From positions 1 to 53,433 of the IMG/VR virus record IMGVR_UViG_3300030390_001591: 53,433 bases of DNA. The stretch is one strand, 5' to 3'. Shown one piece after another: positions 34,123 to 52,118 of the stretch; position 1 is the stretch's first letter, and each line of letters starts with the position of its first letter. A program made the position numbers and the translations under genes. The DNA is from a virus. Taxonomy: Duplodnaviria > Caudoviricetes. The notes beneath the pieces were generated by a model. It saw only the letters and a list, made by a program, of their open reading frames with translations, did not search any database and was not told the origin of the DNA.

Positions 34123-34551
34123 ATGAATAAATTTTTAATGGTATTTGCATTGTTAACAGTGTTTACAGGTTCTGTTCAAGCAAAAGATTTAACAATTGAT
34201 ATGTTAAATAAAAGAGACGATGGCGCAAAAATGGCTTATAGTGAAGATATTGCCAGAATCGATGTTGGTGATACTATCACTTGGCTACCAGCAAAAAAAG
34301 GACATAACGTAGAATTTCGTGCGGGTCCTGATGGAGTGAAGCTGCCTAAAAAGTCAAAAATGAATAAGGAATTCTCTATGACTTTTGATACACCAGGCAT
34401 TTATTACTACTGGTGTACACCTCATAAATCTATGGGAATGATCGGTCTTGTAGTTGTTGGTGATAATATCTCAAATAAAGATGCTATTGCTAAAACTAAA
34501 ACTTCAGGTAAATCTAAAAAGAAACTTAAAAAACTCTTAACACAAATATAA
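34123..34551 (+). CDS. Pseudoazurin (blue copper protein) with signal peptide
   Basis: Sec signal ending VQA; MLNK...VGDTITW...GHNV...CTPHKSMGM gives His/Cys/His/Met type-1 Cu ligands; TCTAAATA at 34088-34095. Confidence 0.9.
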   Translation: MNKFLMVFALLTVFTGSVQAKDLTIDMLNKRDDGAKMAYSEDIARIDVGDTITWLPAKKGHNVEFRAGPDGVKLPKKSKMNKEFSMTFDTPGIYYYWCTPHKSMGMIGLVVVGDNISNKDAIAKTKTSGKSKKKLKKLLTQI

Positions 34552-34841: not shown

Positions 34842-37445
34842 TTGAATAATTTTTATACATCTATCAATCGCCATAAAGGTGAAATTCTATATCGTGGTTA
34901 TACTGCTAACGGTACTCGGATTGAAAAACGTGAAAAGTTCGGTCCAACATTTTTTTTACCATCAAAGGATCCATCTAAATACCGATCCCTTGATGGTAAT
35001 TATTTAAACTCATATCAGTTTGATACAATGTATCAAGGTAAAGAATTTCTAGACACATACAAAGATATGGAAGGCGTGAAAGTCTACGGAACTAGGAATT
35101 ACGTTCATCAATATATTACAGATAACTTTCCAACTGATATAGAATTTAATCAGAAACATATTAATATAGTTAATTTTGATATTGAAGTTGCATCAGATGA
35201 TGGATTTCCTAGCCCAGATGAAGCATTACATCCAGTCATTTCAATAGCTTTAAAATCTAGTAAGTCATCCATATATCAGGTTTGGGGTCTAGACGAATAC
35301 GATCCTGCTAAAACTGAATTAGATATGGCGGGTGATCATATTAAGTATCACAAATGTGATACTGAGACTGAACTGCTAGTTTCATTTATAAACTATTGGA
35401 CCAAAAACTATCCAGACATCATTACTGGATGGTATATTAGACAATTTGATATTCCGTATTTAGTTAACAGAATCTGTAGGCTCGCCGGAGAAATACCGGG
35501 TGAAGATGGCCAAATAAAATGTAAACCAGCTCGTAGACTTTCTCCATGGAATAACGTCGGAACAGGTTCATCTCGAGGTCAAAAAAGTTCAAAATATGGT
35601 TATGAATTAGAAGGCATTCAAATCGCTGACTATATTGAATTATTTAAAAAGTTTGGTTATTCATACGGACCTCAAGAGTCCTATAAGCTAGATCATATTG
35701 CTTATACTGTCCTAGGTGAAAACAAACTATCATATGAAGAGCATGGTAATCTTCACAGTCTGTACAAAGCAGACCATCAGAAATTCATTGATTATAATAT
35801 TAAGGATGTTCAGCTTGTTGACCGAATCGATAGTAAGATGGGTCTTATCAACTTAGTTTTAACTATGGCCTATAAAGGTGGCGTTAATGTAAGTGATACT
35901 TTTGGCACTACGGCTATATGGGAATCGATCCTCTATCGCAGACTTCTTAAAAATGGTGTTATACCACCGGTCGAACAGATTTCTCAATGTATGTATGGTT
36001 TAGTCGGTAATCCAGACAATCAAACTTATGATGCAAATGGTTCGAAAGAAGCTCAACGCACTATCGCCGGTGGATATGTCAAACCACCGAAGCCAGGTGC
36101 TTATGATTGGGTAGTCTCATTCGACTTGAATTCTCTATACCCAAACATTATTGTGCAGTCTAATATTTCACCAGAGACTATTATTAGAGATAAAACTTGG
36201 AATCATTTTACTCAAGGTGTCAATCACTATTTAAATAACGATGATATTCAGACTGATGATTATTCAGTTTGTGCTAGTGGTGTTCCATTTAGTAAAAATA
36301 AACAAGGTATTATTCCTGAATTAATTGTTGAATATTATGCTGAACGTAGTGTAATTAAACAAAAAATGCTTAAAGTAAAACAAGAGTATGAGCAAACGAA
36401 AAATACGGCTCTTGAGTCAGAAATTAATCAGCTAGAAAATAATCAAATGGCTATCAAGATTCTACTTAATTCTTTGTATGGCGCAATGGCAAATAAGTAT
36501 TTTAAATATTTTGATAATGCTCTTGCTGAAAGCGTAACCCTTACCGGCCAACTTTCTATTAAATGGGCTGAACGAGCTATTAATAATGAAATGAATAAGG
36601 TACTTAAAACTAAAGGAAAAGATTATGTTATTGCTATTGACACTGATTCAGTCTATATTAATTTTGGGCCTCTTGTTGCTCAACTGGCGCCAAAGAACCC
36701 TGTTGAAGCATTGGACAAAATTTGTAAGACACACTTCGAACCCATGATTGCAGCAGCTTATGATAAATTATTTCATAAGCTGAATGCGTACACTCCTCGC
36801 ATGGAAATGGGTAGAGAAGTTATAGCCGATCGTGGCATATGGACAGCAAAGAAACGATATATTTTAAATGTTCATAACAACGAAGGTGTTCAATATTCTG
36901 AACCAAAACTTAAAATCATGGGTATTGAAGCTATCAAGTCTAGTACTCCTGAAGTAGTCCGTGATAAATTTAAAGAGATATTTAAGGTTATTATCAAAGG
37001 TAATGAGTTAAGTACTCGTAAGTTTATAAATGATTTTAAACAAGAATTCAAATTGTTATCGGCAGAAAAAGTTTCGTTTCCGCGTGGCGTATCTGAACTT
37101 GATAAGTGGAAAGATCGTCGAACTATCTATAAAAAAGGCACTCCGATACACGTGCGCGGTGCCTTATTATATAATAATCAAATTAAAGAAAAGTCTCTTG
37201 ACAAAAAACACGATATGATTCAGAAGGGTGAAAAAATTAAGTTCACTTATCTTAAAGTTCCAAATCCTATTAGGGAAAACGTCATTTCGTTTCCAGATTA
37301 TTTACCAGATTCTCTGCATCTAAACAAATATATAGATTATGACAAACAGTTTGAGAAAACATTTCTAGAGCCACTTGAACCGATATTAGATGCGGTTGGG
37401 TGGTCAGTAAATGAGCAAGCAACATTAGAGGATTTCTTTGGATGA
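34842..37445 (+). CDS. gp43: Family B DNA polymerase gp43
   Basis: DIEV exonuclease motif, [24 protein letters not shown]-terminal clamp motif TLEDFFG; TTG start with GGAGG. Confidence 0.98.
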
Positions 37446-38674
37446 CTAATATTAGTATCACTACTGAACCTACCGGGCGAAGCCCTGAACATAAATATTT
37501 CTTTGGAGAAAAGACGAAGTGTTTAGATAAGACTCGACCAAAGTATTATAAAGTTGGAGAGATGGAAGACTTTCTTCAACTTGCAGATTTGATGATGCCT
37601 AGGTTAATATCTCAATTGATTTATAAAGAACCTTTATGCCTTGAGACATGTAATATCAGATTTAAAATAATTACTAATGATGCAAGACATGAGCAATTTG
37701 TTAAGAATATGTTTGATGTATTGCCTGATGGGTTTGATCCTCAAGTTTATCCACATAGTGTGCATGATTCTGATTGGACGATTTGGCATAATACAGAATT
37801 AAAGGTCGATGAACCAAAAATCTATGTAAATCTTGATACTAAAACTATGTTAATTGCTGGGACAACATTTCTAGGTGAAATCAAAAAAGGTATATTTGGT
37901 ATAGTTAGTTTTGAACTACCAAGATATGATATTTTACCAATGCATTGCAGTGCCTTTACATATAATGATACAACTAATTTAATGTTTGGATTAAGTGGCA
38001 CAGGTAAAACAACTCTTAGTAGTGATCCAGAATATCAATTGATTAGCGACGATGAAGTATCTTGGAATCAAGATGGAATTGAAATGATTGAGACTGGTTG
38101 TTATGCAAAAAGTGAAGGGTTAACACCAGAGACACATAAGACTATATTTGATGCAGTAGAAAAAGCAAGATCAGAAGATTGCTTAGTTGTAGAAAATCCA
38201 GGTGTACCAAACGCAAGATTAAGTTATCCTATCACTTGTGTTGAAAACGCGTATCATGAACCTCAACAATTTAATCATCCAACTAATATCTTTTTTCTTA
38301 CTATGGATGCGAAAGGTGTGTTTCCTCCGGTATCTAAAATTTCTGGTGAGACTGTCCGCCGCTTCTTTGAAACTGGATACACGAGCCAAATGCCTGGAAC
38401 TGAACAGGGAGCAACAGAAATCAAGCCACTGTTTAGTCCATGTTATGGTTCTCCTTTTATGCCAAGACCAATACATGTTTATAGTGATTTGCTAATGCAA
38501 AAAATTCAGTCTAATAATTGCAATGTATATCTTATTAATACTGGTATGGATAAAGCTGGTCAAAGATATCCATTAGACTTTACTAGAAATTGTGTCAAGG
38601 GAGCTATTAGACGTAGTACTCATGACGATAGCGAAAATGTGCTAAACATTCTAGAAAGCTTAATAAATGATTAA
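37442..38674 (+). CDS. pckA: ATP-dependent PEP carboxykinase (shortened)
   Basis: [48 protein letters not shown]. Confidence 0.9.
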
Positions 38675-39383
38675 TTTTATTTTTGATGTTGATGGAACCC
38701 TTACTCCAAGTAGAGGACAAATGGATCCAAAGTTCTCTTCGTTCTTTTTTGACTTTTGTACACTAAACAACGTATATCTTGTTACTGGCAGTGATATTCA
38801 AAAAACACGAGAGCAAGTTGGAGAAGTTATTTGGGGAATGACTAAGCGTAATTATCAATGTTCTGGTAATGATGTATGGGAACGTGGTAAGAATATTCGT
38901 ACTTCTACTTTAAAGTTACCGGATGAAATGTGGAGCTATTTAAATAAAGCAATCACTGACAGTTCATTTCCAGTTCAAAATGGACAACATATTGAGGAAC
39001 GTCCTGGGTTATATAACTTGTCTATTCCAGGAAGAAATATAGGTAATCGTACTCGAATTCAATATGTAGCATATGATAATCATACTAACGAAAGAAATAA
39101 TATTGCTGCTAAGCTACAAGAGCAATTTCCATTGTTTGAATTCAAAGTTGCTGGAGAAACTGGTATAGATATTACTGCTATAGGAAATAATAAATCACAA
39201 ATTCTTAATGATTTTGATCCTTCAGATGTTATCTATTTCTTTGGAGACAAGTGTGATAAAGGTGGAAATGATCATGAAATCGCATTAGCTGTACATGATC
39301 GTGGAGGAGAAAATAGTACATATCAAGTAAATAGTTGGGAAGACACATTTTCTTATTTACAAGCTGTTAAAAATGTGGTATAA
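38667..39383 (+). CDS. HAD-IIB phosphomannomutase-like enzyme
   Basis: FDVDGTLT, VTGSD, IPGRN, FFGDK...GGNDHEI as in eukaryote-type PMM. Confidence 0.85.
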   Translation: MINFIFDVDGTLTPSRGQMDPKFSSFFFDFCTLNNVYLVTGSDIQKTREQVGEVIWGMTKRNYQCSGNDVWERGKNIRTSTLKLPDEMWSYLNKAITDSSFPVQNGQHIEERPGLYNLSIPGRNIGNRTRIQYVAYDNHTNERNNIAAKLQEQFPLFEFKVAGETGIDITAIGNNKSQILNDFDPSDVIYFFGDKCDKGGNDHEIALAVHDRGGENSTYQVNSWEDTFSYLQAVKNVV

Positions 39384-41513: not shown

Positions 41514-41973
41514 AGATATAAATTTGATAGAACTCTTGGCAAAAGCAAAGGCTGAGAGTCAACTTATTTTTGACAAAGAGTCTACTCGAAAGGGTAGAAC
41601 TCTTAATGATATTACTGTTACTAATATGTACGGTCTTGCGGCTGAACAGTTTCTTATTGAAAAATGTAATTTCACCGATAATCCTTTACCATATCAGGAT
41701 GTAATATCTCCAGAAGGTATTGATGTTGAAGTAAAGGTGACGAAGGTTTTTAATTACATTCCCGATGTATTACGTCGTTTGAAAGAAAAGCGGAAAAAGT
41801 ACCCTAGTTTATATCAGCCTGATTGGGTTTTCATATATACCAATAATAAAAAAACCCGCGAATACGTATTTGCTGGCACATACAAATGGAATGGTAACAC
41901 ATATGTTACTAAAGATTGGTCTTTAGAAATTGATAGAGAATTTCTTGCTAACTATGGAGGAGCAAATAATTGA
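41494..41973 (+). CDS. Putative PD-(D/E)XK-fold nuclease
   Basis: G.AAE...YQDV......VEVK catalytic spacing. Confidence 0.55.
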   Translation: MRSFSLKDINLIELLAKAKAESQLIFDKESTRKGRTLNDITVTNMYGLAAEQFLIEKCNFTDNPLPYQDVISPEGIDVEVKVTKVFNYIPDVLRRLKEKRKKYPSLYQPDWVFIYTNNKKTREYVFAGTYKWNGNTYVTKDWSLEIDREFLANYGGANN

Positions 41974-42329
41974 AATCTGGAAAAGTCTGGGGAATGACTG
42001 AACTTATTGAAGCTAATGGTACTTTAGAATTTCATCGTATTGAAATGGAAGCTACAGGAGTATGTTCAAAACATCTTCATGAATATAAATGGAATGGCTT
42101 TTATATTGAGTCAGGTATAATGCTTGTACGCGTATGGCAAAATGATTACGATTTAATTGATGAAACTGTTTTACAAGCCGGTGAATATACCAAAGTTAAA
42201 CCAGGTGTTTATCATCAATTTGAATGTATTGAACCTGGTGTAGCTTTTGAGTTATATTGGGCTGAGTTTAACCACAACGATATCATAAGAGAAACTGTAG
42301 GGAGATCAGACAATGAGGGAATTTATTAA
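41970..42329 (+). CDS. Cupin-fold protein (sugar isomerase-like)
   Basis: KVWG, CSKHLH, PGVYHQF; TTG start with GGAGG. Confidence 0.8.
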   Translation: MKSGKVWGMTELIEANGTLEFHRIEMEATGVCSKHLHEYKWNGFYIESGIMLVRVWQNDYDLIDETVLQAGEYTKVKPGVYHQFECIEPGVAFELYWAEFNHNDIIRETVGRSDNEGIY

Positions 42330-42618
42330 TGATGCTTGGAACAGCGTCATGGATGCAAATATTAATCCTTTAAAGAATATACCCAATCTTCAAGTTAGAC
42401 ATTTGATTATGCAAATACTGGCTTGGATGTGGGTTTCCGTGTGCTCTATGTACATAGGAAGTATTATGTTTTGGGGTATTAATGCAATTGTTCATACATT
42501 ATTATTAGCAGCAATTGTGATTACAGTCGGCACATTTGATACTGCAAAGCGCAATCCTAAACTTTTCAATAGAATTGACGGGTATAATGGCCGCAGAAAT
42601 AATGGAGAACACGACTAG
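42313..42618 (+). CDS. Small membrane protein
   Basis: Two hydrophobic segments after NPLKNIP. Confidence 0.7.
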   Translation: MREFINDAWNSVMDANINPLKNIPNLQVRHLIMQILAWMWVSVCSMYIGSIMFWGINAIVHTLLLAAIVITVGTFDTAKRNPKLFNRIDGYNGRRNNGEHD

Positions 42619-43025
42619 TGAAAATAGGATTTACTTGTAGTACTTTTGATTTACTTCATGCTGGACATGTATCTATGCTCAGAGAAGCAAAGTCGCAATG
42701 CGACTATTTGATTTGTGGTCTGCAAGTAAATCCTAATGTTGATCGTAAAGAAAAGAACTCTCCAATACAAAATATTGTGGAAAGGCAAGTACAGCTTTCC
42801 GCAATAAAATATGTTGATGAGGTCATTATTTATTGTACAGAAGCCGATTTACTTGATATAATAAACATGTATCCAATTAATGTTAGGATACTTGGTGAAG
42901 AGTACAGAAGCAAGGATTTTACCGGTAAAGATGAATGCCGTAACCGTGGAATTGATTTGTATTTTAACAAACGTGATCATCGCTTTTCAACTAGCGATCT
43001 AAGAAAGAGAGTATGCGAACAATGA
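42618..43025 (+). CDS. Cytidylyltransferase (TagD/glycerol-3-phosphate CT-like)
   Basis: FDLLHAGH, YVDEV, RDHRFSTS. Confidence 0.9.
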   Translation: MKIGFTCSTFDLLHAGHVSMLREAKSQCDYLICGLQVNPNVDRKEKNSPIQNIVERQVQLSAIKYVDEVIIYCTEADLLDIINMYPINVRILGEEYRSKDFTGKDECRNRGIDLYFNKRDHRFSTSDLRKRVCEQ

Positions 43026-43711
43026 AAATGAATTCAATATTAGATATTCGTCAATACTTTGTTGATGAACTAAATAGTGAGTCATATACTATTGATAAAA
43101 CTGGCGCACGAACTATTGAGTTAATCGGTGCTTCATTTAAAGCTGATGCTCCATCGATTTTTGGCACGCCATCACACTCTTATATTCGAAAAGAATTAGA
43201 TTGGTATGAAAGCCAATCAACTAATATCTTTGATATTAATAAAGAGTCTGGTGGAGATGCTCCAGCTGCTTGGAAATATGCGGCTAACACTCATGGTGAA
43301 ATTAATTCAAACTATGGACATCTAATCTATGCTAATAAATATTTTGATCAATATCAAAATGCATTATCTGAATTAGATAAAAATCCTGATGGTAGACGTG
43401 CTTCTATGATCTACAATCGGCCTTCAATTTGGGTGGAGTTTAACGAAAATGGAAAATCTGATTTCATTTGTACTAACGCTGTCACTTACTATATTCGTGA
43501 TAATTTACTTCATTGTGTAGTCCAAATGCGGTCTAATGATGTAGTATTTGGCTATAAGAATGATTATGCTTGGCAACGACATGTCCAAAATAAATTAGTA
43601 GAAGATTTAAATAATATCTATAGAGTTAAAGATCCGGTTATTGCTGGCACAATGATATGGCAATGCCAAAATCTTCACGTATATGAAAGGCATTTTAATC
43701 TTGTTACATAA
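43022..43711 (+). CDS. gp42: dCMP hydroxymethylase (T4 gp42-like)
   Basis: DKTG.TIE.IGASF.AD, ELDWY, GEINSNYG, SDFICTN, MRSNDVVFGYKNDYAWQ, LHVYERHF; Asp at the C/U specificity site. Confidence 0.9.
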   Translation: MKMNSILDIRQYFVDELNSESYTIDKTGARTIELIGASFKADAPSIFGTPSHSYIRKELDWYESQSTNIFDINKESGGDAPAAWKYAANTHGEINSNYGHLIYANKYFDQYQNALSELDKNPDGRRASMIYNRPSIWVEFNENGKSDFICTNAVTYYIRDNLLHCVVQMRSNDVVFGYKNDYAWQRHVQNKLVEDLNNIYRVKDPVIAGTMIWQCQNLHVYERHFNLVT

Positions 43712-44162
43712 TACTGATCGTCAACATAAATGGGATCTAAGATATTTAGAGCTGGCTAAAACTATTGCTGGATGGTCTAAAGATCCTTCAAGTCAGATCG
43801 GAGCTATTGCTGTAGGTTCAAAGGGACAAGTCTTAGCTCAAGGATATAATGGATTTCCACGTGGTATGGTTGACAGCACTAACTTGTATGAAAATCGAGA
43901 AGAAAAATATGCTCGAATTGTTCATGCTGAAATGAATATGATTTACAATGCTTCATTCAATGGAGTATGTTTGAATAAATCTACTGTTTATGTCTCAGGT
44001 CTTCCTACTTGTTCGGATTGTGCCAAAGGTCTTATTCAGGTTGGTGTTACTGAACTGGTTATGCCACAACAAAAGATTGTTGAAAAATGGTATGACTCAT
44101 GGCAAAGATCTAAGTCATATTACAAAGAAGCTGGTCTTAAATACCGATGGGTAACAATATGA
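43683..44162 (+). CDS. cd: dCMP deaminase
   Basis: SKDPS, GYNGFPRG, HAE, PTCSDC. Confidence 0.92.
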   Translation: MKGILILLHNTDRQHKWDLRYLELAKTIAGWSKDPSSQIGAIAVGSKGQVLAQGYNGFPRGMVDSTNLYENREEKYARIVHAEMNMIYNASFNGVCLNKSTVYVSGLPTCSDCAKGLIQVGVTELVMPQQKIVEKWYDSWQRSKSYYKEAGLKYRWVTI

Positions 44163-45127
44163 AAGTCATAACAAATCCTATTAATAATATCCCAGTAAAT
44201 GCCAAATCACATACTCTTGGTTGGGCTCAACTTTGGCGAGATCAACTTGGCGCTTACATAGATAATAAATGCACGCCAAATGTTAGAAAAGCTAGTACTG
44301 TTTATATTGATCATGGAGCTAACTTTGGGGGAACGTTAAATCTATTTGGCGGTGCCAATAAAGAAGTTTATGATAAGTTGAATATAATTGCATCGTGTAA
44401 AGATGTAGTCTCACTTGATTGGGACATGCCTGATTATGGAGCTATGTTAAAGAAAAGACTGAGTGCTAAGACTACATACGAAGGAATTACTGAAGACTGG
44501 TGTGATTTACTATCTAAAAGGTTTAAAAATGTTAAATCACTTAAACAACAAGAATTGGATTTAAATAATGTCATTGTCGGAGATAGCCATACTTTGTCTT
44601 TTTGCGATCGGGGTGATATGGTGTTTCGTAATGATGGTAAAACTCTTCATGGCGCTCTTAAAGCCGGCCTTTCTAGTCTTATTCGTGATAATAATATACG
44701 CTATAACCGTATCACTTTCTGTTTAGGATCTATTGATATTCGTCATCATTTATTACGACATGAATTAAATATTGACGTTTTAATAGATTCTTATTATGAG
44801 CAAGCTATGAAATATAGTAGTGATTCAACAGATGTTTGGTTTACTGCTCCAGTACCAGTAGAATTTGAGGGTCGACGCATTCCTAAATCTGGCTTTTTTA
44901 AAAAAGAACCGTTTTACGGTAGCTGCGAACAGCGTAGAGATGTTACAGATATGTTTATAGCAGCTTTGCATAAACGAACTAGTAATGTTGTACAACCACC
45001 AGCTGATTGGTATAGCATGGATTCTCAAAAATATGCTGAAACTTATATGGAGCATGGTAGTAGTTTTCATATAGCTCCACCATTTTATAGAAAAAACAAT
45101 TGGGGAGCGACAGTTTTTGCCACATAA
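44159..45127 (+). CDS. Uncharacterised two-domain protein with C-terminal SGNH-like motifs
   Basis: VIVGDSH, LGSID, late SFH; ATGA-coupled. Confidence 0.55.
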   Translation: MKVITNPINNIPVNAKSHTLGWAQLWRDQLGAYIDNKCTPNVRKASTVYIDHGANFGGTLNLFGGANKEVYDKLNIIASCKDVVSLDWDMPDYGAMLKKRLSAKTTYEGITEDWCDLLSKRFKNVKSLKQQELDLNNVIVGDSHTLSFCDRGDMVFRNDGKTLHGALKAGLSSLIRDNNIRYNRITFCLGSIDIRHHLLRHELNIDVLIDSYYEQAMKYSSDSTDVWFTAPVPVEFEGRRIPKSGFFKKEPFYGSCEQRRDVTDMFIAALHKRTSNVVQPPADWYSMDSQKYAETYMEHGSSFHIAPPFYRKNNWGATVFAT

Positions 45128-46016
45128 TAATCACGTAGTTGACTTAATCAATAAAGACTATCCTTTCCCTTGGAGTAGTCCCGAGGATACTAAGGAACAT
45201 TATTTAGAATTAGCTAAGGATTGGGAAGATCCTTATGGCCCTCCTGTTATTAAAAAGCATGAGGGCATTCGTGTTGTTAGAGATGACTACTTAGTCGGTA
45301 GTAAGGTTCGAGGTGGGGACTGTCTTATATCTTCTTTACCGAAAAATATAGACACTATTGTTTATGTTCAACCACGGACTGGATTAGCTGGGGTGAGTAT
45401 TCTTGATGTAGCAAAAAGACACAATTTAAAAGTTAAACTCTTTATGCCTTCATCGAAAAAAATATCACCGCATCAGGCTTGTTGTATTGAACGCGGAGCA
45501 ATAGTAGAATTTCATAGAATTGCTGCTATGCCTAATTTAAATGCCATTGCAAAGAAATGGTCTGACGAGCGATCTAATTGTTTCTTTGTTCCACTCGGAT
45601 TAAAGCATGAATTAGTCACAGCCGGAATCGTTAAAGTTGCGTCAAAGATCGATCCACCTGACGAGGTTTATACTGCCACGTCCACGGGCGTGCTCACACG
45701 GGGGCTTCAAATTGCTTGGCCAAATGCTAAGTTTACATCAGTTTGTGTGTCAAGAAATATGAAAGCCGGAGAGCTTGGCATTGCTGAGGCAATATCCGAG
45801 CCATTAGCATTTACTGCCTCTGAGAAAAAAGATAAGCTTCCACCATTTCCTAATATAAGTACTTATGATGGAAAAGCCTGGAAGTACATTCCAAAGAATT
45901 CAAACAAAGATATTTTATTTTGGAATGTAGGTGCTGAACCACCACTAAGCCGTTGGGCTATTATCGATGAAACAAATTCTTATAAGAAGTGGCCAAAAGA
46001 TGAGCTGGTTGAATGA
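45117..46016 (+). CDS. PLP-dependent fold-type-II enzyme
   Basis: VVRDD...GSKVRG (PLP lysine), STGVL phosphate loop, TYDGKAW, LFWNVG. Confidence 0.75.
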   Translation: MPHNNHVVDLINKDYPFPWSSPEDTKEHYLELAKDWEDPYGPPVIKKHEGIRVVRDDYLVGSKVRGGDCLISSLPKNIDTIVYVQPRTGLAGVSILDVAKRHNLKVKLFMPSSKKISPHQACCIERGAIVEFHRIAAMPNLNAIAKKWSDERSNCFFVPLGLKHELVTAGIVKVASKIDPPDEVYTATSTGVLTRGLQIAWPNAKFTSVCVSRNMKAGELGIAEAISEPLAFTASEKKDKLPPFPNISTYDGKAWKYIPKNSNKDILFWNVGAEPPLSRWAIIDETNSYKKWPKDELVE

Positions 46017-47019
46017 AGAAGCCCTAGACATTTTTGTCGACTACTATTATCCAAAAGCAAAGTGGTTGCAAAATAATGTTAATTGGGGTCCATTAGATTA
46101 TGAAGGACCAGAAGCTGCAAAAGCTATTGATGATCCTTTAATGCAAAAGATTGACATATATGACTGCTTTACTCGTAATGCAGCAGGATTTTCTAATGTA
46201 CTTCAGGATCTTAGATTTGGATCTAAAACTCCAAAATGGAGATGGCAGGATAAAGATCGAAGAGAATTGAATACTAAAAATGATTTGATTAAGTGGGATA
46301 CAAAAACTTGGATGTATGTGTTCCTAAGTCATCGGGTTACAGGGTCTGGAGCTTCATTTGAAAGTGATCATGGATATAGAAATAATATTATTCAACACTG
46401 GGGAAAGCATCGAGATATTAAAGATATGGCCGAGGACTTGGTAAGCTTTAAAGCTACTGGTAAACCTCTTTTTACATCAATCGGCAATCAACCACCTGCT
46501 CCAAAAAAGGGAGTATCAAACGTAGATTTCCTTTCTAAAGAGCTTCCCGAAGTTATAGATAGATTAGGTGACTGGCTTGTACAGCGCAAAAGAGGACACA
46601 AAGAAATTGTAGACTTTTTAAATGTTTATAACAAGTCTGCCGGTCATAGAAAATTCAATTTCCAATACGCAGCCTTTTCAATGGATTGTTCTGATTACTT
46701 TCCAGAACACGTTGATGTTGATAGCCATACATACTTAGGTAATAATGCAGTTCGATGCATGAAGAAATTATCTGGGGGTTGGAAACCAGATAATTTTATG
46801 GATTTATTGAGAGAAAAAACGGGTGGAAAACCAAAAGATTTAGAAGATGTAATGTGTGACTTTGTGCGGTTTGGACAAAATTATGTTCCTCGAGGAAACG
46901 GAACCTTCGATCATATACCATCAACGTTAGCAAATAATTCGAGGTGGCATTCTGGCTGGGAACAACGGCAAGGTGTGCCACCTCAAAAAGGTATACAATT
47001 AGAGGATTTTATGGTATAA
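46000..47019 (+). CDS. 5-hmdU DNA kinase-like / aGPT-Pplase helical-domain protein
   Basis: N-terminal DDPLM...YD..TR and C-terminal YLGNNA...DLEDVMCDFVRF resemble the family's DPIL...N..R and G.GA...D.E..LCEF.KY patterns (divergent). Confidence 0.55.
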   Translation: MSWLNEEALDIFVDYYYPKAKWLQNNVNWGPLDYEGPEAAKAIDDPLMQKIDIYDCFTRNAAGFSNVLQDLRFGSKTPKWRWQDKDRRELNTKNDLIKWDTKTWMYVFLSHRVTGSGASFESDHGYRNNIIQHWGKHRDIKDMAEDLVSFKATGKPLFTSIGNQPPAPKKGVSNVDFLSKELPEVIDRLGDWLVQRKRGHKEIVDFLNVYNKSAGHRKFNFQYAAFSMDCSDYFPEHVDVDSHTYLGNNAVRCMKKLSGGWKPDNFMDLLREKTGGKPKDLEDVMCDFVRFGQNYVPRGNGTFDHIPSTLANNSRWHSGWEQRQGVPPQKGIQLEDFMV

Positions 47020-47840
47020 TGACTAAGAAATTAAAAATATCCGTGATCGGCTGTGGGTTTGTAGGCACAGCTGTTATTAATGGTTTTAATAAAACACTAT
47101 GTGATATTGCACCAATCGATATCAAATACAGTACTACAGTATCAGACACTGATTCATTTTGTGATGTATTTTTTGTATGTTTACCTACACCCATGAATAA
47201 TGATGGATCTGTTAATGCTGCACTTGTAATTGAAACTGTTAAATGGTTAACGCTTAATAGGGCTGGACATATTGTAATAAAATCAACAGTCACGCCTGAT
47301 ATTATAGATAAACTTTCTGGTGATAGGGTAGTTTATAATCCAGAATTTTTAAATGAAGTATCTGCTAACGAAGACTTCATTAATCCACCAATGCATATAT
47401 TTGGCGGGCATATTAAAGACACAAATAATATTGAGAAAATATATAAAAAATATAGTAAATGTAAACCTTGCCCATGCCACCATGTGACATTAAAAGAAGC
47501 AAGTTTTATTAAATATGGAATCAATTGTTTCCTTGCTACAAAAGTATTATGGTTCAATCAATTCTATAATATAATACAAAAACATGATTGTAATTTTGAT
47601 GAGATTACTTATGCAATGAGATCAGATCCAAGGATTGGTAATTCTCATACAAGTGTTCCAGGATTTGATGGCAAAATGGGTTTTGGTGGAGCCTGTTTTC
47701 CAAAAGACACTTCAGCATTTTTAGATTTTGCAATCTCGTTTTCAGTCCTAGATGAGGTAATACAAGCAAATAATAAGATTAGATCTGAATATACGAAAGA
47801 TAAAAGAGAGCTTGAACAAAATGTCTCTTTTAGTAAATAA
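47019..47840 (+). CDS. UDP-glucose/GDP-mannose dehydrogenase-family protein
   Basis: GCGFVG, VCLPTP, IKSTV, NPEFL, GFGGACFPKD; lacks the usual C-terminal domain. Confidence 0.9.
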   Translation: MTKKLKISVIGCGFVGTAVINGFNKTLCDIAPIDIKYSTTVSDTDSFCDVFFVCLPTPMNNDGSVNAALVIETVKWLTLNRAGHIVIKSTVTPDIIDKLSGDRVVYNPEFLNEVSANEDFINPPMHIFGGHIKDTNNIEKIYKKYSKCKPCPCHHVTLKEASFIKYGINCFLATKVLWFNQFYNIIQKHDCNFDEITYAMRSDPRIGNSHTSVPGFDGKMGFGGACFPKDTSAFLDFAISFSVLDEVIQANNKIRSEYTKDKRELEQNVSFSK

Positions 47841-51266: not shown

Positions 51267-51453
51267 AGTTAACGATGATGCAGTATACGAATTAGTACAT
51301 CAGGTTCTTATGCAAATGGAAGAAGATATGCCTCAAAGTAAAAAACTAACAAAAGCTATCAAACGAATTAATCATAATATTATGATCCCAACAGATTGGG
51401 AAGAAATGTATGACCAAGATTTTGTTGAATATGATACTGGAGAATATAAGTAA
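51256..51453 (+). CDS. Hypothetical protein
   Basis: In-frame ATG at 51256 after AAGGA. Confidence 0.65.
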   Translation: MKIEVNDDAVYELVHQVLMQMEEDMPQSKKLTKAIKRINHNIMIPTDWEEMYDQDFVEYDTGEYK

Positions 51454-52118
51454 TGAAGGCTAAATTGATAGGATATACCCAAGTTCATGATATGCCAGAA
51501 ATTGGTGATGTTCAAGACCTTATTGCCTTTTGTGCAAGAGTATCAAATCCTACAAACCAGATTAATAGTGCGACCAGTGAAAAGCTTATTAAATATCTAA
51601 TTAAGCATAAACATTGGTCGCCACTTGAAATGGCGTCAGCTACTATGGAAATCGAAACAACTCGTGATATTGCTCGCCAATTATTACGTCACCGTTCATT
51701 CTCATTCCAAGAATTCAGTCAACGATATGCTAATCCAAATGATATGGACGAAACTTTTGTATTGTCTGAAGCTCGTCTTCAGGATACTAAAAATCGTCAA
51801 AATAGTATTGAAACTGAAGATGATAGCCTGCAAAATGAATGGTGGAATAAGCAAATGGCCGTCATAGAAACATCTAAGATGGCTTATGATTGGGCAATCG
51901 ATAATGGCATTGCAAAAGAACAGGCTCGTAAAGTTTTGCCTGAAGGTTTGACTTTATCTCGCTTGTACGCTAACGGAACTCTTAGATCATGGATTCATTA
52001 TATTGAATTGAGAAGTGATAATGGTACTCAAAAAGAGCATATGGAACTTGCTCGAGAGTGTGGTAAAGCTATTAGTAAAATCTTTCCTCTCGCAGAGGAT
52101 CTAATTCAGGGAGAATAA
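51453..52118 (+). CDS. thyX: Flavin-dependent thymidylate synthase ThyX
   Basis: ARVS, HWSPLE, RHRSFSFQEFSQRY, EQARKVLP, TQKEH. Confidence 0.96.
   Translation: MKAKLIGYTQVHDMPEIGDVQDLIAFCARVSNPTNQINSATSEKLIKYLIKHKHWSPLEMASATMEIETTRDIARQLLRHRSFSFQEFSQRYANPNDMDETFVLSEARLQDTKNRQNSIETEDDSLQNEWWNKQMAVIETSKMAYDWAIDNGIAKEQARKVLPEGLTLSRLYANGTLRSWIHYIELRSDNGTQKEHMELARECGKAISKIFPLAEDLIQGE

Follow-up and report, generated by a model that had tools for sequence, protein, structure and literature searches.

What is made by three overlapping genes that lie between the DNA polymerase and UvsX genes of an uncultured marine T4-like phage? The genes occupy positions 44159-47019 of IMG/VR record IMGVR_UViG_3300030390_001591, which was analysed as one stretch of 53,433 nucleotides (the window, a 53.4-kb piece of a phage genome with an estimated completeness of 30%). 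A first-pass annotation, made from the sequence alone, described them as an SGNH-like protein (ORF1), a pyridoxal phosphate (PLP) enzyme (ORF2) and a 'DNA-kinase-like' protein (ORF3). On balance, the evidence favours the view that the trio and a nearby gene for a T4 gp42-type dCMP hydroxymethylase form a cassette for post-replicative, amino-acid-type hypermodification of 5-hydroxymethylcytosine (5-hmC) in phage DNA, the chemistry being inferred. The cassette is real and conserved, an apparently undescribed variant of pyrimidine hypermodification directed at cytosine, and the phage DNA probably carries a decorated cytosine that has not so far been described chemically.

Are the three genes real, and do they belong together? 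The overlapping, same-strand arrangement is borne out by the coordinates (Table 1). ORF1 and ORF2 overlap by 11 nt, and ORF2 and ORF3 by 17 nt (50 nt from the upstream ATG of ORF3). From stop to stop the frames measure 313-356 codons, compared with a longest frame of 144 codons in 200 mononucleotide shuffles of the stretch. At E <= 1e-3 there are 243 metagenomic relatives of ORF3 and 408 of ORF1; because the former measure 338-340 aa and the latter about 320 aa, starts at 46000 and 44159, respectively, are favoured. The first-pass annotation had staked its proposal on the trio being conserved together, and this is the case. Among 80 viral loci found with ORF3, all three genes lie on one strand in 65, in the order 1-2-3 in 42 and 3-2-1 in 23; in each of the remaining 15, the contig breaks off within 1.5 kb on the partner side. 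The gp42-like gene lies upstream in every locus with at least 1.5 kb of flank (44/44). A second set of 80 further loci was found with an alignment of fused proteins, since the single queries P0306 and P0267 did not reach distant loci. Here, a third order, ORF1-ORF3-ORF2-gp42, is seen at 13 loci, a fused ORF1+ORF3 followed by ORF2 and gp42 at two, and the fusion alone at one.

Which base is the substrate? The precursor is predicted to be 5-hmC because the linked thymidylate-synthase homologue is a gp42-type dCMP hydroxymethylase. This protein matches T4 deoxycytidylate hydroxymethylase (1b49) over residues 9-231 with E 5.6e-68, and is about 51% identical to gp42 of T-even-like phages. It keeps the Cys (DFICTN), an Asp at the position of ThyA N177 (KND), the D169 position (RSND) and the L143 position; its segments 'sdfictn' and 'mrsndvvfgykndyaw' align with 'sdfmctn' and 'mrsndvvfgfrndyaw' of T4. 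Homology, the catalytic Cys, the equivalent of Asp179 for cytosine specificity and the Asp at the ThyA D169 position all place it in the T4 gp42 family. The diagnostic Asp residues and the Cys are kept in 60/60 gp42-like homologues of related loci, including that of Aeromonas phage 44RR2.8t, and the thymidylate-synthase homologues of more distant ORF1 cassettes carry the same cytosine-type signature. By contrast, the dUMP hydroxymethylases of phages M6 and Pam3 carry Asn at the N177 position. A subset of gp42-like enzymes produces 5-hydroxy-dCMP and is marked by Asn at the ThyA Asp169 position (PMC13326640); such an RB69-like activity was rejected here, as Asp is kept at that position. Judged by these residues, the precursor enzyme is cytosine-specific and hydroxymethylating, and the base is 5-hmC, not hydroxymethyluracil. 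Thymine in this phage is probably normal, as ThyX is encoded beside the gp42-type enzyme. The thymidine setting that the first-pass annotation implied by its comparison with aGPT-Pplase2 enzymes is therefore not the right one.

Could the cassette nevertheless target 5-hydroxymethyluracil, with 5-hm-dUMP formed from 5-hm-dCMP by the adjacent dCMP deaminase? The deaminase gene does lie between gp42 and ORF1, and the characterised relatives of ORF2 and ORF3 all act on thymidine derivatives (PMC8989533). Every linked thymidylate-synthase homologue, however, is of the cytosine type, with Asp at the N177 position where true dUMP hydroxymethylases have Asn, and the window encodes ThyX for dTMP. Nor is the deaminase a fixed companion: it adjoins the cassette in many relatives, but in many arrangements it is not adjacent, and in several with the orders 3-2-1 and 1-3-2 it lies elsewhere or was undetected at the locus. 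T4 itself has both gp42 and cd, yet makes no hydroxymethyluracil. Taken together, these points make the uracil alternative very improbable.

How does the trio compare with characterised pathways? The thymidine pathways of phages M6, ViI and PaMx11 comprise a dUMP hydroxymethylase, a 5-hydroxymethyldeoxyuridine (5-hmdU) DNA kinase, an amino-acid:DNA transferase (aGPT-Pplase2/ADDT) and a PLP decarboxylase (PMC8989533; PMC11472151). As in those phages, a thymidylate-synthase homologue would make a 5-hydroxymethyl pyrimidine, which enters the DNA and is further modified on the polymer, and the genes for a helix-hairpin-helix-fold protein with a Glu-x3-Cys pair and for a gp52-family PLP enzyme with the same lysine cluster beside that of the hydroxymethylase. 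The differences are that the base is cytosine here and uracil there; that no P-loop 5-hmdU DNA kinase (5-HMUDK) was found here; that the two-domain, SGNH-fold ORF1 stands in, or is fused at, the kinase's place; and that a single helical protein, too divergent for either Pfam model, replaces the usual pair of clade 1 and clade 2 proteins.

The PLP label of ORF2 holds. ORF2 matches phrog_7093 with E 2.6e-32 (residues 29-273 against profile positions 14-279 of 279), a profile that M6 gp52 matches with E 2.2e-159, and it reaches Pfam PALP with E 3.5e-4 and 20.4 bits, under the cut-off of 35. In a direct BLASTP comparison with gp52, the alignment is confined to the 45 C-terminal residues (E 2e-6), and the single sequence had no match among PDB sequences. 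Lys63, the predicted PLP lysine, aligns with gp52 Lys36; at least 98% of 66 homologues (39-96% identity) carry it, and it is invariant in 11 diverse relatives. In M6, gp52 is a PLP-dependent decarboxylase that converts C-alpha-glycinylthymidine on DNA to 5-aminoethyl-dU, and Lys36 is its proposed PLP lysine (PMC8989533). The sequence match and the lysine place ORF2 in the gp52-type family of fold-type II enzymes (M6 gp52/ViI gp226). Its fold type is clear, and its predicted reaction is most likely decarboxylation.

PLP domains of the gp52 family also occur in a different setting. The 812-aa protein gp7 of Erythrobacter phage ZS04 (L084:2326-4764) combines a ParB-like N-terminus and an N6/N4 DNA methyltransferase motif with a gp52-family PLP domain (PALP E 3.5e-10; phrog_7093 E 1.1e-37) and a further C-terminal domain, and similar proteins are found in phage R6L (gp1) and Microcystis phage Mae-JY30. 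Fusions of this type may be read as a further sign that gp52-family PLP enzymes work on DNA.

Is ORF3 a transferase? Its model, built from an alignment of 62 relatives, has a pLDDT of 93.4 and a pTM of 0.90. In an exhaustive structure alignment, the 5-phosphomethyl-dU glycinyltransferase PaMx11 gp46 (PUGT; 8z2m_A) was first of 48,161 chains, with 204 residues aligned at a root-mean-square deviation of 4.0 and Z 9.1, a modest value for a helical protein given that the aligner cautions below Z ~13. Ranks 2-19 were taken by AGOG, DUF2419 and other helix-hairpin-helix glycosylases. Against the predicted viral structures of BFVD, ranks 1-3 were members of the ORF3 family (TM score 0.76-0.80); two models, at ranks 2 and 4, bear the name 'Amino acid:DNA transferase domain-containing' (E 9.5e-16 and 8e-4), and nearly all of those at ranks 4-13 are amino acid:DNA transferase (AADT), Pplase1 or 5-hmdU-kinase helical-domain proteins. 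In a language-model atlas, 10-36% of the members of clusters neighbouring ORF3 carry PF18723 or PF18724.

The likeness extends to a putative active site. ORF3 has the motif D-L-E282-D-V-M-C286-D-F, comparable with E243-x3-C247 of M6 gp51 and E291-x3-C295 of M6 gp55, an equivalence that rests on motif likeness and on the hhalign register with HMUDK_hel, not on residue-level superposition. Both residues are at least 90% conserved among the 62 relatives and invariant in seven fused forms. The same spacing is seen in PUGT (8z2m, 8z2n), the closest solved structure, where Glu243 and Cys247 were mutated in the PUGT paper. PUGT differs from ORF3 in sequence (8% identity over the structural alignment) and in its substrate, phosphorylated 5-hmdU, as against a 5-hmC context without a kinase. 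Both a conserved Cys and a Glu close to it are required by the transferases M6 gp51 and ViI gp247, in which the thiolate has been proposed to attack C6 and so generate an exocyclic methylene (Lee et al. 2021, PMC8989533). ORF3 has both the essential-type Cys with its neighbouring Glu and the helix-hairpin-helix DNA-glycosylase-like fold of PUGT, whereas it does not reach the cut-off of Pfam ADDT (PF18724) and has no co-encoded 5-hmdU DNA kinase to supply 5-phosphomethyl-dU. Neither the HMUDK_hel signature (PF18723, aGPT-Pplase clade 1) nor the P-loop kinase association of that family was found for it.

We infer from the predicted structure that ORF3 is a protein of the aGPT-Pplase superfamily (AADT/HMUDK_hel), and propose that it is a base-flipping group transferase. 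All that stands of the 'DNA-kinase-like' label is a remote resemblance to the helical domain found alongside the 5-hmdU DNA kinase; ORF3 itself lacks a kinase domain and matches no Pfam family. The statement that no aGPT-Pplase2 transferase is recognisable holds at the Pfam level and fails at the level of the PUGT fold and the Glu-x3-Cys pair. Of the roles put forward in the first-pass annotation, that of the helical protein as the transferase fits best, given the PUGT fold, the AADT-named viral models and the Glu-x3-Cys pair.

If ORF3 is the transferase, what takes the place of the kinase? No 5-hmdU DNA kinase domain was found among the window ORFs scanned. The model for the P-loop kinase, PF18748, had no match in any of five records, including two related contigs estimated to be 77% and 86% complete and the complete 44RR2.8t genome; as a positive control, it recovered M6 gp54 with E 7.7e-18, just as the ADDT model recovered M6 gp51 with E 1.4e-46. 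In M6, the kinase gp54 and the helical gp55 are encoded by adjacent genes. Here, ORF1 takes the position of the kinase, either next to the helical protein or joined to it.

ORF1 has no Pfam match even at E 10 and matches phrog_13881 with E 4.5e-91. In its model (pLDDT 91.8), residues 134-317 align with SGNH/GDSL enzymes at Z 8.7-11.8, these making up nearly all of the top 50 chains, and a Foldseek search, as the first-pass annotation had suggested, returned the SGNH fold with probability 1.00 (best E 2.6e-3). The SGNH label is thus upheld, and the motifs picked out by eye, S17-H18..G21-W22, H52-G53..N61..G64-G65 and G141-D142-S143-H144, were found and are conserved. Across 60 diverse homologues, G141-D142-S143-H144, G190, I192, D193, R195, H197 and H304 are invariant. 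The SGNH signature consists of a block I Ser, a block II Gly, a block III Asn and a block V His, with an Asp three residues before that His. Like SGNH/GDSL esterases and O-acyltransferases (PAF-AH, sialate O-acetylesterase, PatB, OatA), ORF1 has the fold (Z 9-12) and the Ser, Gly (Gly160, kept in 59/60 homologues) and His, the blocks being assigned to strands from the secondary structure of the model, not by superposition. Unlike them, it lacks the block III Asn (the sequence there is G190-S-I192-D193, with the Ile invariant) and the block V Asp three residues before His304, bears an extra N-terminal domain, and has DNA-directed genomic and fusion partners. On the model, the C-terminal domain is a divergent SGNH-like domain and not a canonical member, having the three-layer alpha/beta/alpha fold but not the full set of four signature residues. 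The N-terminal domain is a conserved alpha/beta unit of ~130 residues with near-invariant H18, N61, G64, G65 and R100; it had no usable match in the language-model atlas, and the ORF1 profile gave only a chance ribosomal-protein match among PDB sequences.

How firmly is ORF1 tied to the helical protein? In the second set of loci, ORF1 has a helical partner of the aGPT-Pplase superfamily nearby in all 71 that contain enough downstream sequence. Seven metagenomic representatives (639-790 aa) combine an ORF1-like N-terminal part with an ORF3-like C-terminal part. A further metagenomic protein, P0369 (979 aa), carries an FkbM methyltransferase (37-192), HMUDK_hel (288-633) and an ORF1-like domain (650-978); as the ORF1-ORF3 fusions have their domains the other way round, fusion of ORF1 to helical domains arose independently. 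In a cultured phage, Aeromonas phage 44RR2.8t, ORF233c (795 aa) joins an ORF1-like part to a weak HMUDK_hel match and adjoins a sodium:solute symporter (locus L001, 4357-8337). Other matches were set aside: the weak ones to MGDG_synth (E 8e-4 and 3e-3), which two fused proteins show within their linker, were taken as chance, and P0366, a protein with FG-GAP repeats among the long ORF3 matches, as a spurious repeat match. Prediction of an ORF1+ORF3 complex gave a score of 0.00 against a mark of 0.32, which counts neither for nor against binding.

A sister cassette is found at 55 loci of the second set. ORF1 is followed there by myo-inositol-1-phosphate synthase, an ORF of 131 aa, in many cases an FkbM methyltransferase, and lastly a helical protein with Pfam-significant HMUDK_hel scores (43.1 and 31.9 bits against PF18723); at nine more loci, ORF1 and the inositol-phosphate synthase are present and the sequence ends before the position of the helical gene. 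By its gene content, this cassette points to a cyclitol-type decoration of hmC. Elsewhere, a free ORF1 homologue lies beside UDP-galactopyranose mutase and a 358-aa protein in Aeromonas phage 25 (L178, 2755-6026), and another between ribonucleotide reductase genes in Tenacibaculum phage PTm1. The 358-aa protein was considered as a hidden helical partner and rejected, as hhalign was negative against both helical alignments. The different neighbours of ORF1 (PLP enzyme, inositol-phosphate synthase, UDP-galactofuranose synthesis, solute importer) suggest that it forms a common core with the helical protein, to which other genes supply different groups.

With no activating kinase found, ORF1, which is fused to the helical domain in other phages, seems more likely to fill the kinase gap than the transferase role. 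ORF1 as the transferase, one of the options in the first-pass annotation, is the less likely alternative. In the proposed pathway, ORF3 would flip out 5-hmC, and Cys286 would add to C6. ORF1 would provide the leaving group, which is the kinase's job in thymidine pathways, most likely as an ester formed on the hydroxymethyl by its Ser/His pair. Departure of the 5-CH2-O-X group would then leave an exocyclic methylene, to which a free amino acid could add via its side chain or another atom that is not the alpha-amine; the alpha-amine itself must be free because PLP chemistry needs it. ORF2 would then decarboxylate or otherwise tailor the appended amino acid. The likely end product would be a 5-substituted cytosine with an amine, which would protect the DNA against host nucleases.

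A bolder version of this pathway is possible, although we regard it as doubtful. ORF1 might be the first of a new class of enzymes acting on a nucleobase in DNA, an SGNH-fold O-acyltransferase that esterifies the hydroxymethyl of 5-hmC and so creates a carboxylate leaving group for the Cys-dependent ORF3. After decarboxylation by ORF2, an aminoalkyl or aminoalkoxy cytosine would replace cytosine in widespread marine T4-like phages, and the other donor genes (for inositol-phosphate synthase, UDP-galactofuranose synthesis and a solute importer) would give rise to a family of undescribed cytosine decorations. If this is true, aminoalkyl or aminoalkoxy cytosine would be a base new to chemistry.

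The roles could also be divided differently. ORF1 itself may be the group transferase, its Ser/His pair moving an acyl, aminoacyl or other group onto the 5-hydroxymethyl oxygen, with ORF3 only a DNA-binding or base-flipping subunit, as HMUDK_hel is thought to be for the kinase, and ORF2 acting on the ester-linked amino acid. In its favour, ORF1 stays constant across cassette types, whether with the ORF3 family and the PLP enzyme, with HMUDK_hel and inositol-phosphate synthase, or alone beside UDP-galactopyranose mutase. Its catalytic-looking residues are invariant in 60/60 homologues, the fusions place it where the P-loop kinase sits in 5-HMUDK, and transferases of the SGNH fold, PatB (Z 10.9) and the OatA C-terminal domain (Z 9.2), are among its structure matches. 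On the other hand, ORF3 keeps the AADT-catalytic Glu-x3-Cys, which would be needless in a passive clamp (although the uncharacterised HMUDK_hel family also keeps the pair), and a gp52-like enzyme could not decarboxylate an amino acid whose carboxyl is tied up in the ester. We consider this division of labour unlikely.

Several observations weigh against the proposal that the trio makes an amino-acid-type modification of 5-hmC with ORF3 as the transferase. ORF3 has no Pfam match even at E <= 10 and none in PHROGs; the PF18723 model finds nothing in the window; ADDT is touched by one of the 62 ORF3 relatives (E 0.00099) and HMUDK_hel by one (E 0.01). Foldseek returned nothing from the PDB at E <= 1e-3, its best matches all being archaeal 8-oxoguanine glycosylases (E 0.056, probability 0.98), which adds to the modest Z of the PUGT match. 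The hhalign match between the ORF3 family and seven HMUDK_hel proteins is weak (E 0.0017, probability 15%, 132 columns), although in its register the invariant Asp, Gly and Cys-acid residues of both families line up, and against M6 gp51 alone only a chance-level match of 16 columns was obtained. The ORF2 family profile matches only cysteine synthases in the PDB, and these weakly (best E 0.009); as beta-replacement enzymes, they leave decarboxylation not assured. For ORF1, there are the absent block III Asn and block V Asp, and we know of no precedent for esterification as 'activation'. Moreover, some ORF1 homologues have inositol-phosphate synthase or UDP-galactopyranose mutase as their neighbour in place of a PLP enzyme, so the ORF1 step may not be amino-acid specific, and profile searches found no helical partner in the genomes of Aeromonas phage 25 and PTm1, though such an empty answer shows little. 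Since the window is only an estimated 30% of its genome, a kinase may be encoded elsewhere in the phage. Finally, no nucleoside data for carriers of the cassette were found in the literature. Two further searches with ORF3, a tblastn search of 50,697 phage records and a profile search of PDB sequences, gave no match.

Might the trio instead be auxiliary metabolic genes with no relation to one another and no action on DNA, namely an esterase, a cysteine-synthase-like PLP enzyme and a helical protein? The cysteine synthases matched by the ORF2 family and the carbohydrate and lipid esterases matched by the ORF1 structure would fit such a set, as would the genes for phosphoenolpyruvate carboxykinase (PEPCK), phosphomannomutase and UDP-glucose dehydrogenase in the same region. 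This is highly improbable in view of the strict gp42 linkage in three gene orders, the fusion of ORF1 to a DNA-glycosylase-fold domain, the DNA-acting gp52 as the closest family of ORF2, and the joining of ORF2-like domains to a ParB-DNA methyltransferase in phage ZS04.

How new would such a pathway be? Like the hmC pathway of T4 (gp42, cd, and alpha- and beta-glucosyltransferases), the cassette has a gp42 orthologue, a dCMP deaminase and a T4-like replication module. Unlike in T4, no glucosyltransferase was seen among the scanned ORFs of the window, the trio follows gp42, and the predicted decoration is not a sugar. In the accessible literature, the phage cytosine hypermodifications described are sugars on 5-hmC or 5-hydroxycytosine, and amino-acid-type decorations are described on thymine only, all starting with a DNA kinase; the accessible parts of the thymidine hypermodification papers mention cytosine in passing only. 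A literature search whose coverage stopped short of supplements and of the 2013 Iyer/Aravind computational paper returned no paper on an SGNH-type or kinase-less pathway on hmC, and no report was found on the DNA chemistry of Aeromonas phages 44RR2.8t and 25. The combination of hmC with AADT-like and gp52-like enzymes and no kinase predicts a modified cytosine and a mode of hydroxymethyl-base activation that would both be new. Cultured Aeromonas phages carry the fused core enzyme (ORF1 + helical in 44RR2.8t). Bases of this kind determine the restriction and CRISPR defences that a phage evades, they affect the metagenomic and long-read sequencing of abundant marine phages, and their enzymes may be a source of tools for site-specific DNA derivatisation.

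Table 1. Coordinates of the trio and of neighbouring genes in the window
Feature	Position	Strand	Details
Cupin	41970-42329	+	Pfam Cupin_2 E 5.5e-6
Small hydrophobic ORF	42313-42618	+	
TagD-size cytidylyltransferase	42618-43025	+	Pfam CTP_transf_like E 4.2e-12
dCMP hydroxymethylase, T4 gp42-type	43013..43711	+	phmmer vs PDB 1b49
dCMP deaminase (T4 cd-like), pool enzyme	43683..44162	+	Pfam dCMP_cyt_deam_1 E 1.3e-15; phrog_174 E 3.6e-35
ORF1	44159..45127	+	ATG 44159 (or 44147) to TAA 45127; 322/326 aa
ORF2	45117..46016	+	TTG 45117 to TGA 46016; 299 aa
ORF3	46000..47019	+	ATG 46000 (or 45967) to TAA 47019; 339/350 aa
UDP-glucose/GDP-mannose dehydrogenase family gene	47019..47840	+	Pfam UDPG_MGDP_dh E 9e-17, UDPG_MGDP_dh_N E 5.3e-15

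Which of the neighbouring genes belong to the cassette? The dCMP deaminase gene 5' of ORF1 shares ATGA with the ORF1 start, and the TAA of ORF3 shares 1 nt with the ATG of the next gene (TAATG). That gene, a dehydrogenase, is variable and lies outside the core, many loci having UvsX straight after the trio. The accessory genes upstream (41970..43025) are found only in the window's closer relatives, and minimal cassettes are without them. The trio is part of a long run of translationally coupled genes between the polymerase and UvsX. In the closest named phage, C48C1 (Kyanoviridae; UvsX identity 75%), the same stretch contains a methyltransferase, a primase and two sugar-nucleotide genes. The window also encodes a T4-type portal, capsid, sheath and terminase, UvsW/X/Y, the gp41 helicase, the clamp and clamp loader, and a family B polymerase, in addition to plastocyanin, Hsp20, MazG and ThyX.

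Related loci offer some further observations. Sister cassettes lie among loci L100-L175 (for example L104:7968-12181 and L156:7962-12648), and some of them have a cytosine-type thymidylate-synthase homologue and a dUTPase/dCTP-deaminase-like gene upstream. In ORF230-232 of Ralstonia phage phiRSL1 (L089), an HMUDK_hel-type protein is encoded between a sulfotransferase-like gene and a deoxyuridylate hydroxymethyltransferase; the sulfotransferase-like protein may be another non-kinase partner of the helical domain.

Other features of the window lie apart from the cassette. Directly 3' of the DNA polymerase (37442-39383) are genes for an ATP-type PEPCK (PEPCK_ATP, E 3.9e-92, 410 aa) and then a eukaryotic-type phosphomannomutase (E 2.5e-23). 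Among 80 related loci, PEPCK is found in L005 and L013 only, so that it is unusual as a phage auxiliary gene. The regions 34123-34551 and 51453-52118 were noted for a plastocyanin-family copper protein, Hsp20 and ThyX, of which the first two suggest a cyanobacterial host. Two very large ORFs (1453 and 866 aa) 5' of the neck genes, at 2109-9089, match no Pfam family at E <= 1e-4 and presumably encode tail fibre or baseplate proteins.

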